Positions 1,555 to 3,674 of a DNA stretch of 64,000 nt are shown here, one piece after another. The notes beneath the pieces are model-generated. The model worked only from the letters and a program-made list of their open reading frames with translations. It made no database searches and had not been told where the DNA came from. The stretch's first letter is position 1, and every line of letters begins with the position of its first letter. Source of the stretch: Escherichia coli (GTDB lineage Bacteria > Pseudomonadota > Gammaproteobacteria > Enterobacterales > Enterobacteriaceae); NCBI RefSeq assembly GCF_003334815.1, contig NZ_QOWO01000004.1. One strand, written 5' to 3'. A program made the position numbers and the translations under genes.

Positions 1555-1627
1555 ACCACTACATCTTGCTCCTGTTAACCCGCTATCATTACCGTTTTCC
1601 TCCAGCGGGTTTAACAGGAGTCCTCGC

Positions 1628-3583: not shown

Positions 3584-3674
3584 GCCGGATGCGACGCTTA
3601 ACGCGTCTTATCCGGCCTACAAATCAGGCAATTTCAGCAAGTAAATGTAGGCCTGATAAGCTTGCGCATCAGGC
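3584..3674. repeat. REP/BIME element (two REP units in inverted orientation) downstream of yeiI and nupX
   Basis: GCCGGATGCGACGC...TATCCGGCCTACA and inverted TGTAGGCCTGATAAG...GCATCAGGC match the E. coli REP consensus. Confidence 0.6.

Follow-up and report, generated by a model that had tools for sequence, protein, structure and literature searches.

The nfo gene of Escherichia coli, which encodes endonuclease IV, is a textbook example of a gene of the SoxRS oxidative-stress regulon; it is driven by a SoxS-dependent promoter, and accounts of its induction usually refer to promoter activation alone. How can such control be maintained when the gene lies 73 bp behind yeiH, an unrelated and separately regulated gene on the same strand that ends without a recognizable terminator? 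Here we describe a hairpin in the yeiH-nfo spacer and argue, with somewhat better than even confidence, that it forms a boundary between the transcription units of yeiH and nfo and acts only on RNA arriving from yeiH.

The yeiH-nfo junction and its hairpin

The window, that is, the whole stretch of 64,000 nucleotides analyzed here (contig NZ_QOWO01000004.1 of assembly GCF_003334815.1), is nearly identical to the genome of E. coli K-12 MG1655, such that a window position equals the NC_000913.3 position minus 2,249,212. Only nine substitutions separate the two sequences in the first 39.7 kb of the window. The register with MG1655 is lost at window position 39707, the site of the MG1655 IS5K insertion in yejO, and the sequenced strain is probably a close relative of K-12 without IS5K in this gene.

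On the minus strand, yeiE extends up to position 406; it is followed on the plus strand by yeiH (505-1554, with the stop codon TAA at 1552-1554) and nfo (1628-2485), and yeiI starts at 2488. The open reading frame list and the RefSeq annotation agree on yeiH and nfo, which are separated by 73 nt only, and bear out the placement of the element between these two genes in an earlier reading of this DNA made from the sequence alone (hereinafter the sequence-only reading). A candidate source of RNA entering the hairpin is the yeiH transcription start site (TSS), located 17 nt upstream of the yeiH ATG at NC_000913.2 position 2247722, which converts to position 488 (plus strand) of the window (Kim et al. 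2012, PMC3415461). Downstream, the nfo stop codon (2485) and the yeiI start (2488) are 2 nt apart, and a TSS assigned to yeiI maps on the plus strand at about window position 2230, within the nfo coding sequence and 258 nt upstream of the yeiI ATG (Kim et al. 2012, PMC3415461).

A repeat search of the window detected two inverted repeat arms in the spacer, CTCCTGTTAACCCGCT at 1569-1584 and AGCGGGTTTAACAGGAG at 1604-1620, and the long inverted repeat that the sequence-only reading had reported at 1569-1620 is real. RNA folding, which had been proposed there as a check, yields a strong stem: RNAfold predicts 17 pairs, from G1568-U1621 through U1584-A1604, with a single bulge at U1610 and a 19-nt loop, at a minimum free energy of -25.8 kcal/mol. 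None of the 200 dinucleotide shuffles was as stable, and the z-score was -5.99 in an 86-nt context and -6.93 in a 60-nt context. The 5' arm (1568-1584, plus strand), which lies 13 nt downstream of the yeiH stop codon, carries an anti-Shine-Dalgarno motif, CUCCU, at 1569-1573; the loop spans positions 1585-1603; and the 3' arm (1604-1621), which includes the bulged U1610, contains the nfo Shine-Dalgarno sequence AGGAG at 1616-1620. The location of AGGAG within the 3' arm had been recognized correctly; 7 nt lie between this motif and the nfo ATG at 1628. No Rfam family was found for the hairpin, a scan of positions 1300-1900 having returned two chance-level matches only.

The nfo promoter within the hairpin

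Comparison of the regions upstream of nfo showed that the most conserved elements of the spacer are the -10 hexamer of the nfo promoter and a candidate SoxS box 18 bp upstream of it. Within the spacer, conservation is highest in the block AACCCGCTAT.AT, which in E. coli corresponds to TATCAT at 1584-1589 (plus strand), the sole nearly invariant -10 hexamer; the first base of this hexamer is the last base of the 5' arm and the remainder lies in the loop. A CCGCTAT.AT block is nearly invariant in yeiH-nfo spacers, and T45, A46, T47 and T50 of the -10 region are invariant in 29 genera.

The predicted SoxS/MarA/Rob box, TCATCGCATAAACCACTACATC, occupies positions 1544-1565 on the plus strand and shares bases with both the -35 region and the yeiH stop codon, and a gap of 18 bp separates its end from the -10 hexamer; this SoxS site has been predicted for nfo previously (Mendoza-Vargas 2009, supplementary file 6, PMC2760140). 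The marbox-like segment proper, ATCGCATAAACCACTACATC (1546-1565), for which GGCATAAACCACTAC is the form conserved across genera, likewise includes part of the yeiH stop codon. Its match to the marbox consensus, at 1546-1564(5), has two mismatches and leaves an 18-bp gap to the -10 hexamer at 1584. Because the consensus match by itself is not above chance (12 matches found in the window vs 17 expected), the candidate box rests on its position, its conservation and the published prediction. With this predicted box, the nested promoter would fit the geometry of class II SoxS/MarA/Rob promoters, reportedly laid out by Martin et al. in 1999, namely a forward marbox over a weak -35 region and 18 bp before the -10 hexamer. 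The likeness concerns the promoter nested in the hairpin and not the hairpin itself, and we know of no other promoter of this regulon that is located inside a stem-loop.

The 5' end of the nfo mRNA has been mapped at -29 from the ATG, and a sigma-70 -10 box, GCTATCAT, has been assigned to it (written 'acccGCTATCATtacc' for the nfo TSS; Mendoza-Vargas et al. 2009, supplementary file 3, PMC2760140). This places the end at about position 1599 (plus strand), inside the loop. The method used in that study did not discriminate 5' triphosphates, so the end at -29 may not be primary, and its distance from the -10 hexamer (10 nt) is longer than usual; the true start is probably located at 1595-1599, which is within the loop either way. 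Genomic SELEX revealed binding of the RNA polymerase holoenzyme in the spacer listed as yeiH>nfo (Shimada et al. 2014, PMC3946193), and no nfo TSS was detected under non-inducing conditions (Kim et al. 2012, PMC3415461).

Because the conserved -10 hexamer and the published 5' end put the start in the loop, the SoxS-dependent mRNA of nfo itself would lack the 5' arm and, starting downstream of that arm, cannot be a substrate on which the hairpin acts. This is at odds with the main proposal of the sequence-only reading, namely that the structure controls translation of the nfo mRNA proper; an nfo 5' end downstream of the 5' arm had been named there as the observation that would speak against the proposal, and this is where the published end at -29 and its assigned -10 box fall. 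Moreover, a cis-regulatory RNA of a 5' untranslated region (UTR), be it a riboswitch, an RNA thermometer or another leader, is contained as a whole in the mRNA that it regulates, whereas the 5' arm lies upstream of the nfo -10 hexamer and 5' end. A leader of the nfo mRNA that gates translation, for example as a thermosensor or as the target of a trans-acting factor, would be in line with a very stable stem covering AGGAG. In addition to the positions of the mapped end and of the conserved -10 hexamer, such a leader is contradicted by the lack of any promoter-like site upstream of the 5' arm in a plus-strand scan and of any Rfam match, and a stem of about -25 kcal/mol without a known opener would simply silence nfo. 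We therefore regard a regulated leader as very improbable.

Predicted accessibility of the nfo ribosome-binding site

The two RNAs that can reach nfo, one entering from yeiH and one initiated in the loop, differ sharply in the predicted state of the ribosome-binding site. For transcripts with a 5' end at the yeiH TSS or at any other point upstream of 1568, the predicted probability that a base of AGGAG pairs with the anti-Shine-Dalgarno motif is at least 0.97 for every base; in RNA starting at 1596 or 1599, these bases are paired at all with a probability of at most 0.54. Sequestration of the Shine-Dalgarno sequence, as postulated in the sequence-only reading, would thus apply to the yeiH read-through RNA but not to the mRNA from the nfo promoter. 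The predicted cost of opening the region from -15 to +3 in E. coli is 15.6 kcal/mol in the read-through RNA vs 6.7 kcal/mol in the own-promoter RNA, and averages of 12.8 and 3.9 kcal/mol, respectively, were obtained for 36 loci. The value of 15.6 kcal/mol is the highest among the 44 window sites tested in a context of -110 to +35 (median 7.1). RNA from the nfo promoter shows no unusual degree of structure (z = -1.3), and pairing of the loop CCUCC with GGAG in this mRNA was rejected as a candidate because it comprises only 4 pairs in a non-significant structure.

Conservation and covariation of the stem

The hairpin segment is present in all of the 5426 complete E. coli genomes, in 5313 of them with at least 99 % identity, and always as exactly one copy per genome, which excludes a dispersed repeat of the REP/BIME or ERIC type. 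A single genome, L082 (NZ_CP031215.1), shows a 2-nt deletion (TG) in the 5' arm at the equivalent of window positions 1573-1574, which also shortens the spacer of the nfo promoter; this deletion could be a real variant or an assembly error.

Beyond E. coli, the comparison of upstream regions covered 80 nfo loci of other species. Each of the 30 Enterobacteriaceae loci is predicted to form a helix around the -10 hexamer; these loci, which include Escherichia, Citrobacter, Enterobacter, Pluralibacter, Leclercia, Lelliottia, Shimwellia, Cedecea, Kluyvera and Phytobacter, have free energies between -16.6 and -31.9 kcal/mol for the helix. The length of the terminal loop ranges from about 4 to 46 nt among the genera, with the arms still complementary. 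The alignment served to build a covariance model, with which the 30 loci were aligned anew. In the resulting structure-guided alignment, which was fitted to the structure (a sequence-only alignment gave similar numbers), standard pairs fill 82.6 % of the cells vs at most 48.5 % with slid partners, and 7 of the 17 pairs, in 15 cells, have changed on both sides, a count that none of the 500 shuffles reached; the covariation is modest and the compared sequences are related. Compensatory changes are exemplified by TGTCAAACCCGC/GCGGGTTTGACA in Shimwellia and CCCGG/CCGGG in Enterobacter sp. ENT03, and bulges and G-U pairs occur in the aligned hairpins.

A near-perfect palindrome, the arms of which flank the -10 hexamer and the start site, might also function as double-stranded DNA, either as an operator for an unknown dimeric regulator or as a cruciform-prone spacer that tunes the nfo promoter. 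Comparison of the two strands gave folding energies of -25.1 vs -23.7 kcal/mol (p = 0.066), with 18 of the 30 loci favoring the plus strand, and 47 vs 43 G-U pairs; given that the two strands fold about equally, this test leaves room for a role at the DNA level or on the minus strand. The variable loop length, however, fits a folded strand and not a protein site with fixed spacing: no dimer of fixed geometry tolerates inter-arm distances from about 4 to about 46 bp, and an operator for a dimeric protein was rejected on these grounds. Further points against a DNA-level role are the position of the 3' arm, which varies between about +1 and about +35 when counted from the predicted start, and the occurrence of bulges and G-U pairs. 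Altogether, we attach little credence to a DNA-level function.

The evolution of the outer part of the stem follows that of the Shine-Dalgarno sequence: genera with a Shine-Dalgarno sequence keep the anti-Shine-Dalgarno motif, which decays in those that lack one. An insertion of 16 nt parts the inner stem from the Shine-Dalgarno sequence in Cedecea neteri and Enterobacter sp. Ag1, and CTCCTG and CAGGAG are still complementary. In Citrobacter and Kluyvera, AGGAG is deleted and the decay of CTCCTG has taken a different course in each species; their inner stem persists and is lengthened by the new pairs TATACTC/GAGTATG. The stem apparently has some value beyond hiding the Shine-Dalgarno sequence because these two genera retain a strong inner stem without that motif.

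Several features of individual loci can be added. The Citrobacter and Kluyvera loci L004, L006, L012 and L014 contain no recognizable nfo Shine-Dalgarno sequence and have GGCGGGTTTAATTTATG immediately upstream of the start; their stem, about 45 nt upstream of the nfo ATG, is extended by pairing of the -10 hexamer region (TATACTC) with GAGTATG, and a T-rich tail comes next. In Yersinia, a short inner stem, CCGCT/AGCGG, is kept around the -10 region.

Relation to yeiH termination

The sequence-only reading had alternatively suggested that the structure terminates or attenuates yeiH transcription. A scan of positions 1300-1800 detected no canonical plus-strand terminator between yeiH and nfo in E. 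coli, and no separate terminator was found in the spacer across the hairpin-bearing group. The hairpin itself was rejected as an intrinsic terminator in E. coli given its 19-nt loop, compared with about 3-8 nt in such terminators, the lack of a U-tract and the lack of a match in the scan. The tail that follows the stem, CCTCGCAT, contains 2 T in 8 nt, and across the genera this number varies from 0 to 7, with T-rich tails in several of them (RIT691 7/8, Citrobacter 5/8).

The picture is different in Serratia, Yersinia, Edwardsiella and Providencia, where a canonical terminator, at the same position after the yeiH stop, separates the yeiH homologue from the nfo promoter (-10 CATAAT). In Edwardsiella, this terminator consists of 14 pairs, a 3-nt loop and a T-run (positions 1903-1934 in locus L059 and 1888-1919 in locus L071), with the nfo promoter located downstream, and in both loci its 5' arm contains the 10-mer CCTGTTAACC, which is identical to E. 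coli 1571-1580 and was found only twice elsewhere in the approximately 400 kb of fetched loci. In contrast to these canonical terminators, the E. coli stem encloses the -10 hexamer and the start in a 19-nt loop, lacks a U-tract and stops 7 nt short of the nfo ATG. Thus, the terminator proposed in the sequence-only reading is not a canonical one in E. coli, but the core of its 5' arm is that of the Edwardsiella terminator arm. Because the canonical terminator of Edwardsiella shares this core, the enterobacterial hairpin probably descends, as far as can be judged from sequence comparison, from a yeiH terminator, the loop of which would have come to hold the nfo promoter while the 3' arm merged with the Shine-Dalgarno sequence.

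These observations bear on a reading in which the hairpin is mainly a 3'-end element of the yeiH mRNA, that is, either a terminator that is weak or needs assisting factors or a block to 3' exonucleases after Rho-dependent termination, and in which the overlap with the nfo Shine-Dalgarno sequence is a by-product of the very short spacer. The core shared with the Edwardsiella terminator arm, the T-rich tails of several genera, the retention and extension of the stem in Citrobacter and Kluyvera without a Shine-Dalgarno sequence and the lack of another terminator between yeiH and nfo all point in this direction. The E. coli loop of 19 nt, the 2 T in 8 nt downstream and the failure of the scan to call a terminator do not; with tails that vary so widely, the U-tract is not a conserved feature, and the parallel retention and decay of the Shine-Dalgarno sequence and its complement also count against this reading. 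Termination or 3'-end protection as the main role accordingly appears unlikely to us, and it is compatible with the boundary-element explanation, from which it differs in emphasis only.

Descent from a terminator also raises the prospect that the hairpin is a decaying relic in which only the -10 hexamer and the Shine-Dalgarno sequence are under selection and the complementarity has no function today. The homology of the 5' arm to the Edwardsiella terminator arm and the overlap of much of each arm with otherwise constrained elements would be compatible with such a relic. However, pairing is kept in 30 of 30 loci despite the divergence of the neighboring spacer sequence, the double changes exceed those in shuffled controls, and Citrobacter has gained the TATACTC/GAGTATG pairs, so that a functionless remnant seems improbable.

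A further sequence was noticed in Yersinia and Pectobacterium, where CAGCCAACGCACATGCAGCTTGAAGTATGACG precedes the nfo promoter at a distance of about 60-130 nt from the nfo ATG (loci L037, L042 and L047); it resembles the end of an ERIC/IRU repeat.

A proposed boundary element that acts on read-through RNA

The boundary-element explanation that we favor can be outlined as follows. The core promoter of nfo is nested in the hairpin: the predicted SoxS/MarA box is located just upstream, the spacer of the promoter is taken up by the 5' arm, and the loop holds the -10 hexamer together with the mRNA start. The 3' arm doubles as the nfo Shine-Dalgarno sequence. An mRNA initiated at this promoter would begin in the loop, without the 5' arm, and its ribosome-binding site would be accessible. 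RNA reading through from yeiH would contain both arms and form the 17-bp stem, so that the Shine-Dalgarno sequence would be buried and no endonuclease IV would be made from it. The untranslated nfo segment of such RNA would be open to Rho or exonucleases, and the stem would probably also provide a stable 3' end of the yeiH mRNA after their action. The structure, its conservation, the placement of the conserved -10 hexamer and of a published 5' end in the loop and the predicted contrast in accessibility are results; we infer that cells contain read-through RNA, that no translation takes place on it and that the element is retained for this reason. The more specific formulation, in which the hairpin is a conserved insulator of the promoter-in-a-hairpin kind, with a remodeled yeiH terminator, a SoxS-dependent nfo promoter in its loop and the Shine-Dalgarno sequence as its 3' arm, we consider about evenly balanced between right and wrong.

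Among the closest known systems is gene e (lysozyme) of phage T4, for which McPheeters et al. are said to have described in 1986 that early read-through transcripts are untranslatable and that late transcripts start inside the hairpin. The T4 genes soc, 49 and I-TevI have similar arrangements. As at nfo, the hairpin of gene e covers the ribosome-binding site and encloses the promoter of the gene, such that the gene's own transcript lacks the 5' arm; the upstream transcripts of gene e carry both arms and are silent, as is predicted for RNA entering nfo from yeiH. The T4 device serves the temporal (early/late) control of a phage, whereas nfo belongs to a stress regulon of the chromosome, is transcribed from a SoxS-activated sigma-70 promoter and would receive its upstream RNA from an unrelated membrane-protein gene.

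Insertion sequences provide the second parallel. Fold-back inhibition in IS10/Tn10, on which Davis, Simons and Kleckner reportedly published in 1985, is said to guard against external promoters, and IS50 and other insertion sequences have similar arrangements. In IS10, as in our model of nfo, the ribosome-binding site is paired with a segment that precedes the element's own start and is therefore contained in incoming transcripts only, which insulates translation from impinging transcription. The yeiH-nfo spacer combines the two features typical of such fold-back elements, namely a stable hairpin over the Shine-Dalgarno sequence and an own start downstream of the 5' arm. The difference is that IS10 is a mobile element defending itself against fortuitous activation, whereas the nfo hairpin resides at a fixed syntenic junction and encloses the -10 hexamer. 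IS200 combines a left-end terminator against impinging transcription with a separate stem that sequesters the Shine-Dalgarno sequence (PMC4513863). It shares with the nfo model the purpose of insulation from upstream transcription and the stem-loop over the Shine-Dalgarno sequence, but it employs two hairpins, with the sequestering stem located in the 5' UTR of the transposase, whereas at nfo one hairpin would do both jobs and would be absent from the own mRNA. The type of mechanism is therefore already known. Its use at nfo is apparently undescribed: no earlier description of the nfo hairpin was found in the full-text literature searched, which is weak evidence of novelty given that most of the older SoxS/nfo literature was outside the scope of the search, and an earlier mention is possible.

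If the boundary-element explanation is correct, it would account for the SoxS control of a stress gene placed so closely behind a terminator-less neighbor: the upstream RNA would be rendered unreadable rather than stopped, and the output of endonuclease IV would be set by which promoter made the mRNA and not by the amount of nfo RNA. Transcript-specific translation is so far best known from phage T4 and insertion sequences, and the nfo hairpin would be a conserved cellular counterpart of the T4 lysozyme and IS10 devices that also reveals a route from a terminator to such a device. The same solution might then be expected at other very short junctions between genes on the same strand, where RNA-seq levels may mislead on protein output; at this locus, nfo RNA need not track the Nfo protein. 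For the same reason, constructs with and without bases 1568-1584 may behave very differently.

Other palindromes and marbox-like sequences in the window

Outside the yeiH-nfo spacer, the best match to the marbox consensus in the window, ACAGCACTGAATGTCAAAA, is located at 62509-62527 on the plus strand and has one mismatch. Judging by its position, it should lie upstream of micF (the MG1655 gene would fall at about 63.9 kb of the window), and it may be the known micF marbox. Two further strong palindromes were detected, CTTATCCGGCCTACA/TGTAGGCCTGATAAG at 3607-3660, between yeiI and nupX, and ATACGCCACATCCGGCAT/ATGCCGGATGTGGCGCAT at 54543-54581; both resemble REP elements.
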